A stretch of DNA of 64,000 nucleotides, taken from the NCBI GenBank assembly GCA_963772455.1, contig CAVYXJ010000012.1, forward strand, positions 128,001 through 192,000, in the 5' to 3' direction. Source of the DNA: Candidatus Bathyarchaeota archaeon (GTDB taxonomy: Archaea > Thermoproteota > Bathyarchaeia > Bathyarchaeales > Bathycorpusculaceae). Positions 9,296 through 59,841 of the stretch are shown one piece after another. The position numbers and the translations under genes were made by a program. The notes below the pieces were generated by a model that worked only from the letters and a program-made list of their open reading frames with translations, made no database searches and was not told the DNA's origin. The stretch's first letter is position 1. Each line of letters opens with the position of its first letter.

Positions 9296-10106
9296 TTAAA
9301 ATAAATCAGGTTCAGATTCCTTTGAAGGTTCTTGAGAAACTTTAGGTTGTACTAGTTTCTTCAAAGTTTTGTGGCATTTGCTGCATTCAAACATCTCATT
9401 GCCGCATGACGGACAGAATATTTCTTGCTTTATCATGCGATCTAAAAGCTCGAGCAATTCTGCTTTATTCTTTACCTCGCGTGGAGATTCTTCCCGCACA
9501 AAATCATTAGCCGCCTTTTCTGGTTGTGGGTTTTCATTGGTGACTATTTCTTGATATACCTTTGAGATGCTGGTTTTTCCTTCCCTTAGCTTTTGTTTTT
9601 CATCTTCACTAGCTTTTTCCATTATTTTTTTACCGCGTTCAAGGGTTCGGGTAGAAACACCTGCTTTTTTGGCCACAATATCAGTTGCTTTTGCCTTTAA
9701 CTCAGGCGTAGCGTCATCTGACGCTATCCCCAATTGCATATCTCGACCATCTTTGCCTCCTTTGGATTGTCTTGACTTTGCAAGAGCTTTTTCAATTTCA
9801 AGCAGAGGAACAGCTAATTCAACAAGCTGGAAGTTGTTGAGGTGGCGACGTCTTAGGTTTGCTTCAATAACGAATTTCTTTTCATGAAGTTTGTCATCGA
9901 ATTTGCGAACTTCAAAATCTGGTTCGATACCAAGTGCCATACAAGCTCGAAAGCGGTGGTGTCCATCTAAAACTTCTAGGTCTTCATTAACGATTATTGG
10001 GTAGTGTTGGCCTTCGGTTTGTATTGAAGCTTTGAGTTCCTGCGAATTCTTCATCGGACATTCTTGGAAGTAGTTTGTCGTATTCGGGGTTTAAACGTAA
10101 ACTCAT
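9296..10106 (-). CDS. ParB/Srx N-terminal domain protein with HTH-like region and C-terminal zinc ribbon; frameshift near 10040
   Basis: Reconstructed start MSLRLNPEYDKLLPRMSDEEF..LKASI; PIIVN...LDGHHRFRAC, EANLRRRHLN, VAKKAGVSTRTLER, CPSC..CSKC. Confidence 0.85.
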
Positions 10107-10250
10107 GGATACCGCCTTCTTCTTTGTTTGAATTATTATTTAAGGTGAAGGGTCAAAGAAGTGTGCCAAAGTTGAAATTTTTAAATAAACAACAACTTCT
10201 TGCTTGTTGACTTTGCTTGAAGCAATCTTTGCGCCAAATAATATATTTGA

Positions 10251-10288
10251 GAGAAGAAGAAGAGAAAAAAATTTGCATTCTTCTTCTC
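10251..10288. promoter_or_regulatory. 11-bp inverted repeat upstream of the parB-like gene
   Basis: gagaagaagaa-N16-ttcttcttctc. Confidence 0.45.
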
Positions 10289-10390
10289 TTCTACAAAAAT
10301 TTAGTTCATACCCTTTTACAACTGGGGATATTGCGGTGTCTTATTACGCTTTTCAGTTAGAAAAGGTGCCTTTTCGTCAAACTTTCTTTA

Positions 10391-39093: not shown

Positions 39094-39561
39094 TTAAATG
39101 CTGCCGGAAATTACTATGTTGAAGTCGAAATCGGATATGTCGCCTGTGTCAGCAGCTACGTTTAACGTGAGTGTTGCGGGTACTATGGCGCCTGCTTGGA
39201 GTGTGGCGCTTTCTTTATTCCACGTTAAGAATAGGCTTGACGTGGCGGATGGTGGATTTCAATCTTTGGCAGTCATGCTTAGGGTTTCAGTTATGTTGCC
39301 TGTATTTTTGACGTAAATTGTTTTTGTGGCAACGAATGGCGTAATCAGTGTACCCCAATCAATATTTGAGCATAATGTTGTGGCTTGCGAGTCACTGTAG
39401 ACACTTATGTTAACTGTGTTGGTTGTTATACTTCCGCCTAGGTGACCTTGTGCTGGGATGTTTTGTTGGGCGTTTAATATTCCTGCTGTTACTACTGAGA
39501 GTGCTATTGCAATGAAAACTAGGGTTATGAGTGGGATTATTGCTGCTTTTTTTAGTTGCAT
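39094..39561 (-). pseudogene. Secreted beta-sandwich protein with an in-frame TGA at 39259-39261
   Basis: IDWG, IYVKNTGN..TLSM..KD-[TGA]-NPPSA....LTWN...ATLTLNV...FDFNIVISG* stays in one frame. Confidence 0.75.
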
Positions 39562-39748
39562 AACTTTTTCCTAAATTCATTGTGTATAGCGTCTTAATAA
39601 ATGCTATACATTTCTGATCAGTAACAAGAAATAAAAAAAAGAAATTCAAGCAACAAAGTCCCTAAAACACGAATTATTTGCATTTAATAATTTCAACTAT
39701 TCTAACTATAATAAAAAATAGTTAAACTGCTCAAAGAAAATCCGGGAA

Positions 39749-40024
39749 TCAAGTGTCAAGAATCGCTTTTAATTCGCAATCAGGCGTGTAAATGATTACG
39801 CCGTCGGGATCTTCTTGTACGGATAAACTACGTTTTTTGGCAACTTCTCTAACCTTTTGTTTGTCTGTTTCAGGAATTATTCCTTTAATGTTGATGCGGT
39901 AACCAACTGAATCGCTGTCATTTGGGGTTTCAAAAGAGACGCATTCAGGCGATAAGTCATTGCATTGGCTCAGAAGCTCTTTTAAGTAGATGATTGCCTC
40001 TGATCTATCCAACGGAATCCCCAA
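39749..40024 (-). CDS. Small M[DN]RxEA-family protein
   Basis: LDRSEAIIYLKEL...GYRINIKG...VAKKRSLSVQE..GVIIYTP; paralogs elsewhere in the window. Confidence 0.75.
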   Translation of the reverse strand: MGIPLDRSEAIIYLKELLSQCNDLSPECVSFETPNDSDSVGYRINIKGIIPETDKQKVREVAKKRSLSVQEDPDGVIIYTPDCELKAILDT

Positions 40025-40215
40025 TTGTCTCTTTCTTGTCTTTTAATATAAAAGGTTTGCACAAACATTTCCATATAATTAGCAGCGTTTTGTTTCATTT
40101 GCATGGTAAAGATTGTTACGTACGTATCAAAAATGTGTCTAACCGTAAAATTTTATAGAAAACTTATTTGATACCTGATCAAAAGGCGATATTTGAAGTT
40201 CAGCAGCTTAGCGGT

Positions 40216-40238
40216 TGTGATTTCAAAGTGTAATCACA
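40216..40238. promoter_or_regulatory. Palindrome TGTGATT-N9-AATCACA directly upstream of a TTTATATT box
   Basis: Perfect 7-bp inverted repeat; TATA-like box at 40243-40250. Confidence 0.55.
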
Positions 40239-40270
40239 TTGTTTTATATTTTTGAGACAGCTAACCAGTT

Positions 40271-40410
40271 GGTAGGAATGCAAGGGATAGCCAACAAAAG
40301 TTGAGCGAATCCGGCTGCTAAATAAGGAAAGGCCGTTGCCCACCTACCCTTTTGGCCTAACCTGTTTGGCGTATGGCTTGGTTCGCTTAACTCTTCATTT
40401 TGGGTTGTCT
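40271..40410 (+). ncRNA. Candidate novel ~140-nt structured RNA
   Basis: ~40-bp interrupted hairpin with many G-U pairs; TATA box upstream; T-rich tract downstream; no ORF. Confidence 0.6.
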
Positions 40411-40515
40411 GAAAAGCAATTTTAACTAATTTTTGTAGCGGTAGATTTCCAATATCAGGACTTTTTATTAAATTTGCATAAAAGAAAAAATGTTAAACTA
40501 TTCATAAACGATGTT

Positions 40516-40786
40516 TTGCGTCAGATTGCGCAACATGATAAAGCCCCTTTCACACTGTCAAAAGCCCAACAGCGATAACTGTTGAACGTTAAACGTTCAT
40601 ACGCTAACAGCACAACGCTAAAAGCTCCTCAAATCATCCGCATTTCAGCGTTTAACGGAGAAATTTTGCTCGTTTCGCTTCGACTTTGGATGTTAAAAAG
40701 TGCGAAAATTCTGGATGTTCGTCCGATTGATAGCGATACTGAAAACAGAAACGATGTTATGCTTTTGTGTCGCAATCTGAAAGCAA
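40516..40786 (+). ncRNA. Candidate ~270-nt multibranch structured RNA
   Basis: Nested long-range stems tcagattgcg/cgcaatctga, tttca/tgaaa, ctgtcaa/ttgatag. Confidence 0.5.
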
Positions 40787-41005
40787 TAAGCTATTTTTAG
40801 ACATCTCAACAAATTGGAAACATTATGTGCTTCAACTATCGCAAGGTTACATTTTTAATCTGGTTGATTGCAACTTTTAATGCTAATGGCCTATTTTTCT
40901 CGCTATTTCTAAAGACTTATTGCTTAAACTAAATTTTTTCTAACTACTGTTTGAACCTCTTAACGAAGACTAATGACCCAAAACTGATAGTAGTCATTCC
41001 TGCTA

Positions 41006-41092
41006 GTGAATAGCAGTGAGAAAAAAGATTACCTCGCGCGTATTAAGAAAAAGAAGCCTGAGCCCATTTCCATAAAAATTCCAACGGATTAG
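41006..41092 (+). CDS. 28-aa basic micropeptide (not in ORF track)
   Basis: MNSSEKKDYLARIKKKKPEPISIKIPTD*. Confidence 0.3.
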   Translation: MNSSEKKDYLARIKKKKPEPISIKIPTD

Positions 41093-41172
41093 GAGAACGC
41101 TTCGGATTGATTATTGTTAAACCCGGATACTGAAGAATTAAATGGAACAAAAGGTGAAAACGATTTGAAAGA

Positions 41173-41417
41173 TGAATGGTTCACTGAAAAAAAAATCAAA
41201 GACCGTTCACCATGGGGCAAAAGAGAGTTCAGCCTTCGATTTACCGGCGATGCGCGTTAATTTACCGTATTTTAGGCTGAAAAAACGTCCGATTTCACAT
41301 TTTGAGGTCGGGCAAGAATTCCTTTGCATTCTTCTTTATGGTATTATTCGATCTCAGACTGCCAGGGCCCCCGGTGACTTCTGTCGTGGTTTTCCCCGCA
41401 GGTATTCTGCAAAGAAT
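41173..41417 (+). ncRNA. Candidate structured RNA, four consecutive stem-loops
   Basis: tgaatggt/accgttca, ttcagcct/aggctgaa, gtccgatttca/tgaggtcgggc, ctttgca/tgcaaag; locally GC-elevated. Confidence 0.45.
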
Positions 41418-41484
41418 CTTAATTGCTTTTTTGGTGGTTTAACAAGCAAGCTTTAAATTGCTTAAGTACACACAAGAATAACCT

Positions 41485-41720
41485 ATGAATCGCCAGGAAA
41501 CAGTCTCCTTGCTAAAGGAAATGATAGCTGTTTGTGGGTCATTCTATGATGCTCGAGCAGTATCCGTTCAAAATGGTGGGAACAGTGATAATTTGGGAAC
41601 TCTCATGTTTACTGGGTTCCTAATCCCTCAGATATCGAATGTATACAAAAAATACTTGCTGAACACATTTTAGAAATGGTTACTATTAACGGACGCTCTG
41701 TATTTCGGTCGAAAAAATAA
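41485..41720 (+). CDS. Small M[DN]RxEA-family protein; frameshift near 41595
   Basis: MNRQETVSLLKEM...; shifted frame HVYWVPNPSDIECIQKILAEHILEMVTINGRSVFRSKK*. Confidence 0.65.
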
Positions 41721-41847
41721 ATTCAGTTATAACTTTAAAATTCTTCTTGCAATTCTTGCATGTGTAAGCTTCAATGTTGAAGACCTGATTTGTAAGCGAT
41801 TTGTGGGGTTTCGCCACTTCTTCACCACAGCTTGGACAACTAACCAT
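41686..41847 (-). CDS. Small zinc-ribbon protein, Cren7-like (not in ORF track)
   Basis: MVSCPSCGEEVAKPHKSLTNQVFNIEAYTCKNCKKNFKV... Confidence 0.65.
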   Translation of the reverse strand: MVSCPSCGEEVAKPHKSLTNQVFNIEAYTCKNCKKNFKVITEFIFSTEIQSVR

Positions 41848-42104
41848 GCAAACTCTCCAAAGTTAGAATAAACTAATGATCTGTGATAAAAGTATTAGAT
41901 GGTTTGTTGGCACATATTGAAACAACAAACAAAACTGGTGGAAATTAAATTATAATGGAAGATTTGAGGTTCAAAAAGGGTTTGTACGCTCAATCAATTT
42001 ATTAATTAACCTCTAAGATAATGAGTCTAAGTCACTTGTTTTTGCAGAGGATAAGATCATGTAAACAGAATTTGATATGGGAGTTCTGTTGGTGAGTTGT
42101 TGGT

Positions 42105-42324
42105 TAGTTTTGAGTTATTGTTTGTTCTTCTTGGTTTGGAATAACCATTAATTGTATTGGGTCTTGTTCTGTGTGTTTTTAGTAGTTGGTGTTTGTGGTT
42201 TTTTGTGGTTTGTGTTTCCGATCCAGTATAGGCTCCAGCCAACTATGAAGGTGAAGGCCATTATTGGCGCTAAAAGGAGTATGGTGAGTTTGCTTCGTTT
42301 TTTTCTATTATGGCGTGTTGTCAT
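42105..42324 (-). CDS. Small single-TM protein, frameshifted
   Basis: AGGTGA RBS; MTTRHNRK..SKLTILLLAPIMAFTFIVGWSLYWIG...IQLMVIP..E. Confidence 0.5.
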
Positions 42325-42760
42325 TTCGTCACCTACTACATCTTGTTACTTAATTCTTAATATATAAATTTTGTTAATTAGCAATGCACTATACTTCTGT
42401 AGAACACAAATATTAGTAAAAAAAAATCACAAATCAAATTAACAATATCAAAGGTCAACAAGTTATTTTTTACGATAAACTCACAACTTTTGTGGGTTCA
42501 GTCGTAAGACGCCTTGACCCATTACTGGATGTTACCCCAGTTTTAGATTGTTTAATATTTTAGTCTGCAAGAAAAAGATTTAGGGATTCTGATAACTAAA
42601 AGAAAACATAAATGATAGTCGTCAGTAATACGGCTAAAACTTCAATTTTCCAATCTCAGCACAATTGAAAATAAGCAAGTAGGAAGTAATTTTTCGATAG
42701 TTATATATGCGTAATGTCATCCAATTGAAGTGAAGTTTTGGGTTCTGAGGCAAAAATAAC

Positions 42761-43789
42761 ATGGCAGCGCTAAAAAAACGAAATTTCATAATCATTACCG
42801 TTATTATCTTGGTTATAGCCATCATTTTAAGCTCATTTGTATATCTCAATTCCCAAATCCCCTACAAAGGCAACATAGAGACCGTAACAATCGGCGTGTT
42901 CCCTTCTGAATATAATTCCTTAATTTATATTGCAAACGACCAACAATTCTTCTCAAATAATGGCCTCAAAATAACATTGAAGAACTATCCTTCTGGAGCT
43001 GCTGCTGCGGGAGGGATGTTAAATGGGGAAGTAGACATCGCTACGGCTTCCGAATTTGTCGTTGCTGACAATGCACTCCCGAATGCAGATCTCAATGCAT
43101 TAGGGAGCCTCTCACAATACCTCAATTTGTACTTGGTTGCAAGAACTGACAAAGGAATTAACGGCATTTCAGATTTAGTCGGCAAAAAGATTGGGCTTAC
43201 CATTGGAACTGGCAATCAATTTTACCTTGGCAGATTCCTCGAACTTAACGGGATAAACCAAAATCAAGTTACACTTGTTAATGTCAATTTTGCACAAGCA
43301 CCAAATGCTCTTGCAAACGGCACAATAGATGCAACAATTACGTTTCAGCCATACATAAACCAAATAAAAAGTCTTCTCGGCAACGCAATCTTAGTGTGGC
43401 CAGCACAAGCTGAACAATTCGGTTACTTCGAAGCTATCAGTACAAACACATGGGTAACCACGAATCCTGGTCTAATTGAACGGTTTTTGAAGGCAATTAT
43501 TCAGGCTCAAAACTTTAATATCAACAACCAAAACATGGCAATATCAATCGTGTCAAAGGAACTAAATTATACAACCTCATACACATCCTCGGTTTGGGCT
43601 GATTATCGTTATTCAGTTACGCTTGACCAATCCTTCATCTTACTCATGCAAGATGAAACCAGATGGCTAATTAACAACAACTTAACTACTGCAACTTCTG
43701 TTCCCAACTTTTTCAATTATATTTATGTTGATGGGTTAAAATCTGTCAGTCCTGAATCAGTCAACATTATAGGCATGGGAACCCCATGA
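42761..43789 (+). CDS. NMT1/SsuA/NrtA-family substrate-binding protein (no transporter nearby)
   Basis: LIYIA....FF..NGL, GEVDIA, ISDLVGKKIG, L.NGTIDA...F.P, NP...ERFLKA. Confidence 0.88.
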   Translation: MAALKKRNFIIITVIILVIAIILSSFVYLNSQIPYKGNIETVTIGVFPSEYNSLIYIANDQQFFSNNGLKITLKNYPSGAAAAGGMLNGEVDIATASEFVVADNALPNADLNALGSLSQYLNLYLVARTDKGINGISDLVGKKIGLTIGTGNQFYLGRFLELNGINQNQVTLVNVNFAQAPNALANGTIDATITFQPYINQIKSLLGNAILVWPAQAEQFGYFEAISTNTWVTTNPGLIERFLKAIIQAQNFNINNQNMAISIVSKELNYTTSYTSSVWADYRYSVTLDQSFILLMQDETRWLINNNLTTATSVPNFFNYIYVDGLKSVSPESVNIIGMGTP

Positions 43790-52892: not shown

Positions 52893-53192
52893 ACTGTGGG
52901 ATTGAAAAATATTAGTGTTTGTGATTGAGGTTTAACAGCAACAAAAATTCCTATCCAATGTTAACTAAAGAAATTGAAAATGCGCTTCAAAAGACGATTA
53001 AAAATAAGAGAACAAAATTAAGAATCACCTCAAAGATGAATTCATTAAACATAAAAAACGCTACTCTTGAAAAAAGATTCTATGATGCATCTTCAAATTG
53101 GGATAAAAATTAATTTGATTGTTTGCTTTAGAATTGAAGAAAATATTTTAAAAGACTAAAAAAGGGGAAAGATAGTTTTTTTGTTTGTGTGT

Positions 53193-55862
53193 TTATGCTC
53201 GTTTTCTAAGCATCATGAGCACTAGCAGACTAGTACTATGATGATTAAAACGAATAGACCCGCGATTGCTGGTACAAAGTACATGTCAGCTGATGATTGA
53301 GGTGGTGTTTCTGTTGGTGCTGCTGTTGGATGCGTTGGATCAACTGCAAATGAGGTTACTGAATGTGATGGCCAGTATGATTCAGATCCTGCGAAAGAAG
53401 CGTAGACTGTATATTGTCCTGTAATGTCTGGTTTCCAGTTGAAAGCGAAGAATCCATCAGTATTGCTTGTTGTTGTGCCAATTTCTCTATAGTTTCCGTT
53501 AGCGTCAAGAACGCTAAGAGTAACTAGGACACCTGTTGCATTGGTTGGAATTGGTTTTTGCATATAGATGTATTCCATCCATGGGGCCATGCTATCGTCT
53601 GATACGGCTGGAACTCCCTGTGGGAAGCGTGTTGCTATTTCATTGTCTTTGGTGCCTGCTGAAGTATCGATAACTGTTCCTTCAATAACAATATTGTCAC
53701 CTAAGGCTGTTGTTTTGGGTGAAACAGAAATCGTTGTTGAACTAGGTCCTTTGCCAACTGAATAGACAGAGTTGTCGTAGTAATTGTAGTATGCGAGGTA
53801 ACCGTCGGCTAATACAGCTGTTGAGCCTCCTTGTCCACCTGTTTGACCTGACCAGCTGAACATTGACCAAATTTCTTCACCTGTGAAGGCATCTAGGCAG
53901 TAGACTTTGGAGCCTCTGAATAGTGGTGCGTTTGGTGAGTGTTCATTGTTGAATGCATAGACTTTTCCATCTGCGACTGACGATATGAAGATTGGTCGAA
54001 GACCCCAGTTTGTTTCAAGGCCGCCGTTTGTATTGTTGAAGCGCCATACTATAGATTTCCGTTGTCGGCATTATAGCAGAAGATTTCTCCACCAAATCCT
54101 TGAACGTAAATGTTGCCATATGCGGTTACGCCTCTGGGTCTCTCCTCCTTCTCCGCTGCCGAAGAATTGGAGGCTTCTGAAATCAGTTGTTGTTGGACCC
54201 CATGCTTCAGCTCCTGTGTCAAGGTTATATCCTCTCCATTGCATGTCTTCAACGTCGTTCATTGTCCATATGCGGTTTATTGGGTCAACTGGTCTTAGTC
54301 TAACTGTTAGGTTTCCTGATTCTGGTGCTACATAGCTCTTTACCCATTTAATGGATGCTAATGTTCCTTGGGAAGCGTTTAGGTTTAGTGCCCACATTGT
54401 GTAGGGATTGTCTGTGAATCGAGCGCCTACTCCGGGTGCAAGGTTGCTGCTTCTGCCAAGTAAAATGTCATCAGGTAATACGGCAAATATTGCTGGAGCT
54501 GTGGATCCTGTTATGTCTCCGGTGAATGTTCTGTTCCAAGAATATGATGTGCTTGCGTTAATAACGTTGCCAACTGGTCTCCAACTGTTAATGTTGTATC
54601 CTGTGCCTATTGAAAGAAGTGCTTGGGTGCTATTCCAAAGAGCTATCCAACCTGCCTTAGCAGTAGTATTGTATCCTAGGACATAGCGGAGTATTTCGCC
54701 CTTAGCGTTGTAAACATCGGTTCCGGCTGGAACACTGGTTAAATTATACATCCATTTTCCAGTGTATGCATCGATTGCTTGCCAGACAGTGTAAGCTGCT
54801 GCACCTGTTCCCACGTTTGAAGTTTGCCACAGTACTCCTCCGACTACACCGTGTTGATTGGGTGATTCAAAATCAAGTAGTTGACCAAAGCTTGGCGCAG
54901 GAATTAATGTTGAAGTTGTAGCTGAGTTGTTGACATATGCGTTGAGATCTGCACGATACCAAATTTGCTGTCCAGTTCGAAGGTCATAACATGCGTATCC
55001 TCCACCGTTGCCTGAGTGTCCAAGTGGGTGCTGTACGTAAATGTAGCCGTTCATTATGATGGTATTTTGGAATCTGCCTTCGTATGATCCACCTGAATAT
55101 TCAGTGACGTCAGAGATCTCGGATGTTCCTCCTACGACTCCTCCGAATTCAATTGGCTTTGTCCATGCAATGTGTGGGGTGTTTGGTGCGATTCCATCCC
55201 TCTGCCAGAGATTGTAGTTAATTGACATCTGGAAGGTTCCGAAAGAGTTTCCTCGCAACCAATGAGATTTCTAGGCTTGACCATGCTAAGTTCTGTCCCT
55301 CAACAGGTCTAGACCAATATTCGGTCGGGAGCGGATACCATGGAACGGATGATATTGGTTCTTGTTGGACATCTAGCGTAATTGTTTTTGATGCTGGTGC
55401 GTAGGTGTCGTTTTCGTATACTGCATTTGTTGCTAGATCAGAAACGTAATTTGCAGCTCCCAATCTATTGGTCCATTTGTAGACTTGTCCACCATAGTCA
55501 AATTTGATTGTGTATGTACCGACTTGATCGGGTACATAAGAAATCGATTGCACATTTGTGGTGTCATCAATTACGTCCCAATGTTTGGTTTCAATTGTGC
55601 CGTCAGGCTTTGTGATGGTTAATGTGTAGTTTTCGCGTCTAATGTTGTTTGTAATCATTGATCCTGGTAAAGACACATCGATCCACATAGAGATGTAAGT
55701 ATTTTGTCCAACACCTATTGGGTCAGGTGCGGCAAATAGATATGCATAACTGTTAATTTTCCATGCGGGTGTATGAGCTTCCGTGCTGGGTACCAGTAAA
55801 AGCGATCCGGTCATTGCAAACAATAGAAATAAAGTATATACGAATGTTTTGAAATGTTTCAT
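53193..55862 (-). CDS. Large PQQ-binding-like beta-propeller surface protein; about 3 frameshifts
   Basis: P.PIGVGQ, ITKPDG, PLPTEYW.RP, HI.WTKP...GG, DL.TG...W repeats, ADGY...N.YD...Y..GKGPS, PAVSD.SM..WMEY.YMQKP, F.GSESYWPS, TM anchor. Confidence 0.88.
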
Positions 55863-59205: not shown

Positions 59206-59273
59206 ACTCAATCTCTCTTTGAGTCATTTACCGCATAATAGGTATAGCATGTATTTTTAATACCTTACTTCTA

Positions 59274-59841
59274 TTCAATTATGTTTTTTGCCGTAATCAT
59301 TTTGAATTCACTGATCGCTTTTTATTCCGAGTTTTATTTAAAAGGTTTTGCAGGGCGAATTCATAGAAAAACTGAGAAAGAGAATAAATGATTTTGTAAT
59401 TTAATTGCTTCTTCTTTGATCAACTGTGAAAGATCAATGAATTAATTGACTTTCTTCTCATTTTCAGGAGCTTTGTTATTCTTGAAATCTTTTTTGTTTT
59501 TGTCCATTTTTTCTTTAAAGACTCTCTTGCGAATTCCTTTTCGTTTCGTTTTTCTTTTTCGATTAATTCAATTATGTTTTTTGCCGTTATCATTTTGAAT
59601 TCACTTTACGCTTTCTATTGCGAGTTTTATTTAAAAGGTTTTGCAGGACTATTTTAATAAGAAAAACTGAGAAAGAGAATAAATGATTTTGTTATTTGTT
59701 TGCTTCTTCTTTAGTCAGCTATGAATGATCAATGAATTAATTGACTTTCTTCTCATTTTCAGGAGCTTTGTTATTCTTGAAATCTTTTTTGTCTTTGTCC
59801 ATTTTTTCTTTAAAAATTTTCTTGCGCATTCCTTTTCGTTT
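59274..59841. repeat. Tandem ~293-bp diverged duplication of the 3' end and downstream region of the flippase-like gene
   Basis: 59274-59546 aligns to 59567-59841 (ttcaattatgttttttgccg...gaattaattgactttcttctcattttcaggagc...ccttttcgttt). Confidence 0.9.

Follow-up and report, generated by a model that had tools for sequence, protein, structure and literature searches.

Sequence evidence for a new family of structured small RNAs in uncultivated archaea and for its candidate micro-protein partners

In the 64,000-nt stretch of DNA analysed here (the window; positions 128,001 to 192,000 of contig CAVYXJ010000012.1 from a Candidatus Bathyarchaeota archaeon), a gap of about 1.45 kb at 40030-41480 lies between two genes for small proteins, and a first-pass annotation had read it as either one large multi-domain RNA or a cluster of small RNAs with these proteins as partners. 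We found that this gap is composite and not a single element. Our overall reading, which we hold to be probable, is that it combines the gene of a new small RNA (sRNA) at 40275-40402 with haplotype-specific DNA, that two micro-protein families are linked to this RNA, and that the RNA would act in trans by binding protein. On comparative grounds, we present from uncultivated archaea a new family of structured sRNA together with its candidate micro-protein partners. The elements of the RNA gene are as follows:

40275..40402, plus strand: structured small RNA of ~128 nt, identified by covariance models, folding and covariation
40242..40249, plus strand: TATA box of the RNA gene, TTTTATAT, invariant in a 9-sequence alignment
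40215..40238, plus strand: conserved palindromic box (TTGTG.. / TGTAAYCACA), a presumed operator found in the alignments directly upstream of the RNA's TATA box

An alignment of nine copies revealed a constant order of parts, in which the palindromic box is followed by an invariant TTTATAT, about 25 variable bases, the conserved body of ~128 nt and a T-run. The body is predicted to fold into a 5' mini-hairpin (GCAA-GGGA-UAGC), a long rod helix and an apical stem carrying the loop UUGCCCACC, with the T-run at 40398-40401 as its 3' end. Its minimum free energy is -44.5 kcal/mol (z -3.25), and none of 200 shuffled sequences was equally stable, while the folding z of the gap outside the RNA ran from -2.4 to +2 (120-nt sliding windows, both strands). 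To score further copies, we used two covariance models, namely R1 built from the nine copies and a broader model, R2, built from 34. The window's RNA reached 147.5 bits with R1 and 130.5 bits with R2, and the minus strand gave 4.2 bits.

The helices are well supported by covariation. Across the 34 copies, 92.9% of the cells form a pair, compared with at most 47% after the partners were slid by 1-3 columns; changes on both sides occur in 14 of the 25 pairs, and none of 500 column shuffles reached any of the five covariation measures. Several of the pairs are conserved G-U. Since these G-U pairs are conserved and the model score is strand-specific, the constraint lies on a plus-strand RNA and not on inverted repeats in the DNA. 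Together, these comparisons show 40275-40402 on the plus strand to be a discrete predicted gene for a structured sRNA of an undescribed family, with selection on its helices that acts at the RNA level. The first-pass annotation had proposed three structured blocks on the same strand, of which only this one proved to be conserved, covarying and more stable than its shuffles.

Known RNA families do not account for it. At the gathering thresholds of Rfam 15, the 64-kb window gave no match, including to OLE, GOLLD, ROOL, SRP, RNase P and 5S, and likewise none to the 6S, Y RNA, C/D and H/ACA sRNA families. When the limit was relaxed to an E-value of 10 over 39600-42800, five rows were returned, all with E of at least 0.63 and none overlapping 40275-40402. 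A literature search found no lineage-specific non-coding RNA family described for Bathyarchaeia. We also asked whether the conserved 5' tail and the apical loop have antisense targets in the genome, and the only sites without a mismatch were the RNA's own genes; one additional 11-mer match to the loop is at about chance level.

The signals around the RNA body recur with it. A TGTAACMACA box (≤2 mismatches) lies upstream of 30 of the 34 copies, a TATA-like hexamer stands 20-42 nt upstream of the model start in all 34, and 29 end in a run of at least four T. Within the genome of the window, box and TATA together (≤1 mismatch) are present at four sites, which are exactly its four RNA genes. This promoter-operator is thus private to the RNA family, which would imply a dedicated regulator.

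The distribution of the family points to a single lineage. In a DNA search of 41 genomes, matches were obtained in 12 of the 24 same-genus genomes besides the window's own and in none of the 16 from other families; they were almost confined to window positions ~40200-40404 and the promoter of the right-hand small-protein gene (paralog 2, below). The covariance model identified four copies in the window's own genome, namely the window copy, its counterpart on a second contig of the same assembly (C23) and diverged paralogs on C9 and C7, which score 54 and 40 bits against 147 for the window copy. Across the genus, 113 copies were found in 32 of 41 genomes, at 1-10 per genome. None of 69 other genera in a family-level draw carried the RNA, and in an order-level draw of 151 genomes the R2 model matched 7 of the 12 genomes of the genus besides the window's own, together with two weak hits (27-29 bits) in one other genus. 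Copies are kept at syntenic places across species, and their 3' flank is different in every genome. In viral contigs, we found five exact matches to a 16-nt motif of the RNA, but the model hits there were only partial (at most 20.5 bits over 41-63 nt) and were rejected as copies.

Some copies have distinctive neighbours. At three loci (L002, L006 and L007, in G002, G012 and G022), a gene resembling tryptophanyl-tRNA synthetase (TrpRS) follows an RNA copy in the same orientation at a distance of 170-360 nt, and in G001 a copy lies beside a gene resembling histidyl-tRNA synthetase. Both labels were assigned by eye, that of TrpRS from the N-terminal sequence, and without a family scan.

The rest of the gap has a different character. 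As the first-pass annotation had stated, the interval holds no convincing gene: its longest open reading frame (ORF) with a start codon encodes 94 aa (41172-41456), and the gap ORFs tested gave no match in a Pfam scan. A tRNA scan found none, no second copy of the RNA was found in the gap, and direct-repeat families were lacking at 40020-41490. The G+C content of the gap (0.34-0.42) is in the same range as that of the surrounding coding DNA. Palindromes, of which the first-pass annotation had described two, are indeed present, at 40113-40130, at 40587-40604/40640-40657 (an inverted repeat of 78% complementarity) and at 40215-40238, the last being the presumed operator. The palindrome at 40113-40130, TTGTTACGTACGTATCAA, sits between two divergent promoters and differs by one change in the sister contig.

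This sister contig, C23, accounts for the larger part of the gap. It is 93-96% identical to the window over most of 35904-59257, with one block at 87% and with breaks, and it represents either a second strain binned together with the first or a large or segmental duplication; in both cases it is a useful internal comparison for any finding in that interval. The homology between the two stops at 40503 and restarts at 41342, enclosing 838 bp in the window and 1729 bp in C23, and so defines the following feature:

40504..41341, no strand assigned: strain-specific segment of 838 bp, delimited by the homology breakpoints and with no recognisable gene, conservation or excess structure

At the same place, C23 carries an intact gene for a 522-aa Na+/H+ exchanger (L009 4692-6260), which is thus a presence/absence polymorphism with respect to the window. 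The exchanger matches PF00999 with an E-value of 2.4e-52 (178.5 bits against a cut-off of 26.2, residues 23-420 of 522). It further has a C-terminal coiled and SHOCT-like tail and is the sole copy in the assembly. We searched 40504-41341 for a remnant of this gene and detected none, the best tblastn hit having an E-value of 0.25 over 19 residues. Comparison of the segment with the rest of the genome (tblastx and short-word blastn) found no similarity, and a DNA search of 40 related genomes gave a single 64-nt match of 77% identity, in G014 (E 2.3e-5). These results show that the 838 bp are haplotype-specific DNA without sign of function. Most of the gene-free 1.45 kb is therefore haplotype-specific filler, and taking it for a giant RNA is a tempting misreading; conservation across the genus covers only ~200 nt, that is, the promoter and the 128-nt RNA, and the proposal of one large multi-domain RNA or an sRNA cluster fails on this point.

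The two sides of the gap are occupied by micro-protein genes, for which we propose the following features:

39749..40012, minus strand: paralog 1 of the small alpha/beta proteins, an uncharacterised family of Bathyarchaeia; 87 aa when read from the second TTG, beginning MDRSEA; an ORF whose start was set by aligning relatives
40041..40054, minus strand: inferred TATA-like box of the paralog 1 promoter, an A/T box ~24-36 nt upstream of the start codons
41451..41458, plus strand: inferred promoter element of paralog 2, a TATA-like box that precedes the ATG by ~30 nt
41485..41720, plus strand: small alpha/beta protein paralog 2, beginning MNRQET, frameshifted and read in two frames
41686..41847, minus strand: CPxCG-type zinc-ribbon micro-protein of 53 aa, convergent with paralog 2 and overlapping its 3' end by 35 nt

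The promoter assignments are consistent with conservation: the TATA-like stretch of paralog 1 is kept in the orthologous loci L011, L023 and L028, and window positions 41428-41477 are conserved upstream of the paralog 2 orthologs in G012 and G009. The earlier description of two divergently oriented paralogs starting with M[DN]RxEA was right as to orientation and paralogy. Profiles of the two subfamilies align over 72 columns with an hhalign probability of 97.6% (E 2.8e-12), and by this profile comparison the two flanking proteins are true paralogs. Paralog 2, however, is not intact in the window. Its counterpart on C23 encodes 77 aa (L009 6471-6704); relative to it, the window has a net gain of 2 nt near 41592-41600, and because of this gain the frame breaks after 36 codons and the remainder reads in another frame to 41720. 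A profile search of the genome accordingly matches paralog 2 as two pieces, and the frameshift may reflect either true pseudogenisation or a mistake in the assembly.

The zinc-ribbon gene was also recognised correctly in the first reading, except for its likeness to Cren7: the Cren7 family is absent among the 23 Pfam families that matched below their cut-offs (E up to 0.1), all of which are generic zinc ribbons or fingers. Eighteen members of the family (41-56 aa) share four invariant cysteines, C4, C7, C30 and C33. In most members the first cysteine pair forms a CPxCG motif, and in most the second forms CxxCG; the conserved core reads ENSxFxIExY. By its sequence, the protein has the features of the class of CPxCG micro-proteins (below ~70 aa, two cysteine pairs).

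The small alpha/beta protein has 147 database relatives, which carry no Pfam domain and are unnamed or labelled 'hypothetical', except for one JGI row named glutamate 5-kinase. In the ESM Atlas, it matched only unnamed Bathyarchaeota clusters (up to 0.82), and a close-relative scan found it in no viral contig. An AlphaFold2 model (pLDDT 81.2, pTM 0.68) predicts the order helix-strand-strand-helix-strand-strand. The first-pass annotation had suggested a Foldseek check for an RNA-binding fold; against the PDB, the model had no match at an E-value of 0.001 or below, its highest-ranking rows being de novo designed proteins. In a VIA fold search, the best Z was 7.3, to the cap domains of HAD phosphatases, which is inside the background of 7-8. 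A complex predicted from the intact C23 paralog 2, its zinc ribbon and a zinc ion scored 0.01 against a mark of 0.32, a value that speaks neither for nor against binding. Just beyond paralog 1, at 39259-39561 on the minus strand, and on C23 (L009 3323-3670, minus strand), we observed another small protein with a hydrophobic N-terminus, which resembles archaellin only weakly and below threshold (E 0.022). The two versions have different C-termini and measure 100 aa in the window and 115 aa in L009.

Both micro-protein families are positionally linked to the RNA. The small-protein profile found matches in 35 of the 41 genomes of the genus, and 142 places were tabulated, with at least two second halves of split genes left out. 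The zinc-ribbon profile gave 258 matches in 37 of the 41, and the linkage counts use 150 of these 258. Within 1 kb of an RNA copy, a small-protein gene is present in 16 of 113 cases (0.43 expected), and a zinc-ribbon gene in at least 18 of 113 among the matches listed (0.44 expected); a zinc-ribbon gene lies within 1 kb of a small-protein gene in at least 33 of 142 cases among the matches listed (0.54 expected). Each family therefore adjoins RNA copies about 35-40 times more often than chance would allow, for the zinc ribbon again among the matches listed. On the same basis, either gene is found within 1 kb of 25 of the 113 RNA copies, and both genes of nine. All 32 genomes that carry the RNA have both protein families, and the RNA is absent from all six genomes without the small protein and from all four without the zinc ribbon, these genomes being 80-97% complete.

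RNA and small protein occur in at least four arrangements, namely divergent (gaps of 252-263 or 331-338 nt), convergent, tandem RNA-first and tandem protein-first; the synteny that the first-pass annotation wished to see tested does recur. Among the matches listed, 15 of the 18 RNA copies linked to a zinc-ribbon gene have that gene on their upstream side and, judged by strands, in the same orientation. In seven of the 12 best small-protein loci, tblastn detects a zinc-ribbon gene, always convergent and touching or overlapping the 3' end of the small-protein gene. The window itself contains two such cassettes. Cassette A consists of paralog 1 (minus) and the RNA (plus), 263 nt apart as in G007, and G193 and G195 are alike with a 252-nt gap; in the genomes of the same layout a zinc-ribbon gene abuts the small gene, and none was found there in the window's cassette A. 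Cassette B consists of the frameshifted paralog 2 and the convergent zinc ribbon overlapping it by 35 nt. Taken together, the data show the flanking genes to be two micro-protein families, an alpha/beta protein of ~78 aa and a CPxCG protein of 41-53 aa, which commonly form a convergent, 3'-overlapping pair and are linked to the RNA. The neighbours of the cassettes are housekeeping genes, including those for EF-2, ribosomal proteins, eIF6, Nop5 and fibrillarin, and a single transposase was present among 57 neighbouring ORFs scanned. In G004, contig C4 (L065) carries a zinc ribbon - RNA - small protein cassette twice, inverted and ~7.5 kb apart (1558-2364 and 9882-10688), and this duplicated cassette could be a composite mobile unit.

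How could such a system work? We propose that the RNA would act in trans as a protein-binding RNA. Its apical loop and its invariant single-stranded 5' tail, GCAAGGGAUAGCCAAC, part of which forms a GNRA-like mini-hairpin, would serve as the binding surfaces; the tail might alternatively pair, through AGCCA, with UGGCU in the 3' strand. The tail and loop are not likely to be antisense seeds, because the genome has no mismatch-free complementary site apart from the RNA's own genes and the chance-level loop match. All RNA copies may be co-regulated via the common palindromic operator. By analogy with the haloarchaeal protein Brz, the zinc-ribbon micro-protein, whose gene stands upstream and co-directional in 15 of the 18 linked pairs listed, would be the leading candidate, either as the regulator that binds the operator or as the partner of the RNA. 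The alpha/beta protein would be the second candidate partner. A more tentative extension, which we put forward as a possibility that falls short of being probable, is that the RNA, the zinc ribbon and the alpha/beta protein are three parts of an unknown ribonucleoprotein or regulatory system that has grown to numerous diverged copies within a single lineage; in such a system, the micro-proteins might bind the invariant tail and loop of the RNA, the common operator, or both.

Several results weigh against our overall reading. The RNA-protein link is loose and is not an obligate module, so that of the module suggested earlier the positional association above chance stands and the obligate coupling does not: for 88 of the 113 RNA copies, the matches listed include no gene of either protein within 1 kb, the best-scoring RNA locus per genome lacks both proteins within 1.5 kb in 29 of 40 cases, and the majority of protein genes have no RNA nearby. 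The zinc-ribbon linkage counts are lower bounds, because the tabulation covers 150 of the 258 matches, and the enrichments overstate the number of independent events, because related genomes are not independent and several pairs are orthologs of one locus. The same RNA subtype occurs beside divergent protein subfamilies (RNA distance 0.1-0.25, protein distance ~0.7), a mismatch that fits copying of the RNA into sites as well as co-inheritance. RNA and protein distances were correlated in a Mantel test (r 0.48, a value that none of 5000 permutations equalled), but we rejected the test as independent evidence because orthologous pairs drive the correlation. Neither protein family reaches a cut-off in Pfam, NCBIfam or PADLOC, and the model of the small protein suggests only a generic alpha/beta sandwich fold without an informative structural neighbour. 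Finally, the ends and expression of the RNA are predicted from promoter and terminator motifs only; a public-run index listed no RNA run for the stretch, and the five DNA runs it returned share only 5-7% of its words.

Other explanations have to be weighed against a trans-acting, protein-binding RNA. The repeat might be selfish mobile DNA resembling a miniature inverted-repeat transposable element (MITE), in which the helix represents the inverted repeats; the element would come to lie beside the micro-protein genes because both occupy permissive intergenic sites. Such an origin would agree with the many copies per genome in many unrelated contexts, with a promoter that moves together with the RNA body, with one RNA subtype standing beside unrelated protein subfamilies, with the inverted duplicate cassette on contig C4 of G004 and with a 3' flank that differs in every genome. 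However, the copies within a genome are old and diverged rather than near-identical: in the window's genome, the sister-contig copy is the only one that blastn retrieves, and the scores of the two paralogs are 54 and 40 bits, compared with 147 for the window copy. In the helix arms, changes on one side are compensated on the other and G-U pairs, mismatches if the constraint lay on DNA or on the opposite strand, are conserved; the covariance model is strongly strand-specific. Copies also stay at syntenic places across species, among housekeeping neighbours with one transposase in the 57 ORFs scanned. We therefore consider a MITE-like element unlikely. A toxin-antitoxin-like addiction or defence cassette, in which the RNA neutralises a small toxic protein, would explain small multi-copy genes of variable presence, a convergent 3'-overlapping pair that permits antisense interplay, and the existence of pseudogenised members, among them paralog 2 of the window and several matches interrupted by stop codons. 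We judge it quite unlikely, given that neither protein matched the defence-system models of PADLOC at meaningful scores, that the tandem repeats of type III antitoxins were not found (no direct-repeat family occurs in the gap), that the conserved tail and loop of the RNA have no antisense complementarity in the genome beyond its own gene, and that most RNA copies have no protein gene nearby.

The RNA could also be a cis-acting leader, that is, a riboswitch or attenuator of the gene downstream. The C23 antiporter begins ~190 nt downstream on the same strand, in G002, G012 and G022 the next gene on that strand is the TrpRS-like one, and overall 22 of 37 loci have a co-directional gene downstream. 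On the other hand, 13 of the 37 have a convergent gene there and two have none, the downstream genes are functionally unrelated, a T-run directly follows the RNA in 29 of 34 copies, and nothing recognisable lies downstream in the window, which makes a leader very unlikely in our view. Least credible is the notion that a single large structured RNA, or an sRNA cluster, fills all of the 1.45 kb. The coding-like G+C of a gap in which no gene was found, and a weak, sub-threshold Rfam row for IMES-1 at 41101-41285, scoring 18.8 bits (gathering score 81) with E 0.63, are in its favour, but the sister contig, otherwise 93-95% identical, lacks 40504-41341, 40 related genomes gave only the one 64-nt match to it, no stretch outside the RNA folds with z below -2.4, the 64 kb contain no Rfam family at threshold, and the single real RNA carries its own promoter and stop. 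This reading is highly improbable. The preferred interpretation thus remains a trans-acting sRNA that probably binds protein.

Three other repeats were observed in the window. Two adjacent copies of ~275 bp at 59273-59546 and 59566-59841 are 90.6% identical. At 53145-53690, a segment of ~500 bp has at least 15 diverged matches (65-83% identity) on many contigs and is probably a multigene family or a repeat. An element of ~65 nt at 10376-10441 has copies of 84-97% identity on C13 (four), C16 (two) and C21.

Bathyarchaeia are abundant and uncultivated, and an RNA family with up to ten diverged paralogs per genome, strong covariation and an apparently dedicated promoter-operator offers a testable entry to their RNA- and micro-protein-based regulation. 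Micro-protein genes belong to a class commonly missed by annotation, and here they are statistically linked to an RNA family.

Compared with known systems, the RNA is closest in general form to classes with which it shares no sequence. Like the C/D-box and H/ACA guide sRNAs, it is small, archaeal, present in many copies and equipped with its own promoters. We judged these two identities by inspecting the family consensus against the usual box definitions and rejected both: the consensus shows no C box (RUGAUGA) or D box (CUGA) and no kink-turn-like tandem G-A, nor does it contain a large symmetric internal loop, and most copies have no ACA box after the helix. OLE, GOLLD and ROOL likewise occur in gene-free stretches of prokaryotic genomes, but these RNAs are several hundred nucleotides long and conserved as one unit, whereas the conserved unit here is only 128 nt and does not reach the Rfam thresholds. 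The rod-shaped, protein-binding Y RNA and 6S RNA are also independent genes of ~100-180 nt, whose halves pair in a long imperfect helix with conserved bulges and loops, and several paralogs exist in some lineages, as for the present RNA. There is no sequence or covariance-model similarity to either (Rfam, E up to 10), and 6S RNA acts on the bacterial sigma-70 polymerase, while archaea have no sigma-70.

For the zinc ribbon, the nearest parallel is Brz of Halobacterium, a CPxCG micro-protein that controls transcription of the gene lying immediately downstream of its own (PMC2253796). The present protein has no detectable sequence relationship to Brz or the haloarchaeal CPxCG proteins beyond the cysteine motifs, and the NCBIfam models of haloarchaeal zinc fingers stay far below their cut-offs. 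The neighbour of Brz is a protein gene, and that of the present zinc ribbon is an RNA gene; the regulatory role suggested by the analogy is putative. What Brz and the haloarchaeal CPxCG proteins have in common with our family is a length below 60 aa, a CPxCG-type motif, a position upstream of and co-directional with the adjacent gene, and a large family in each genome.

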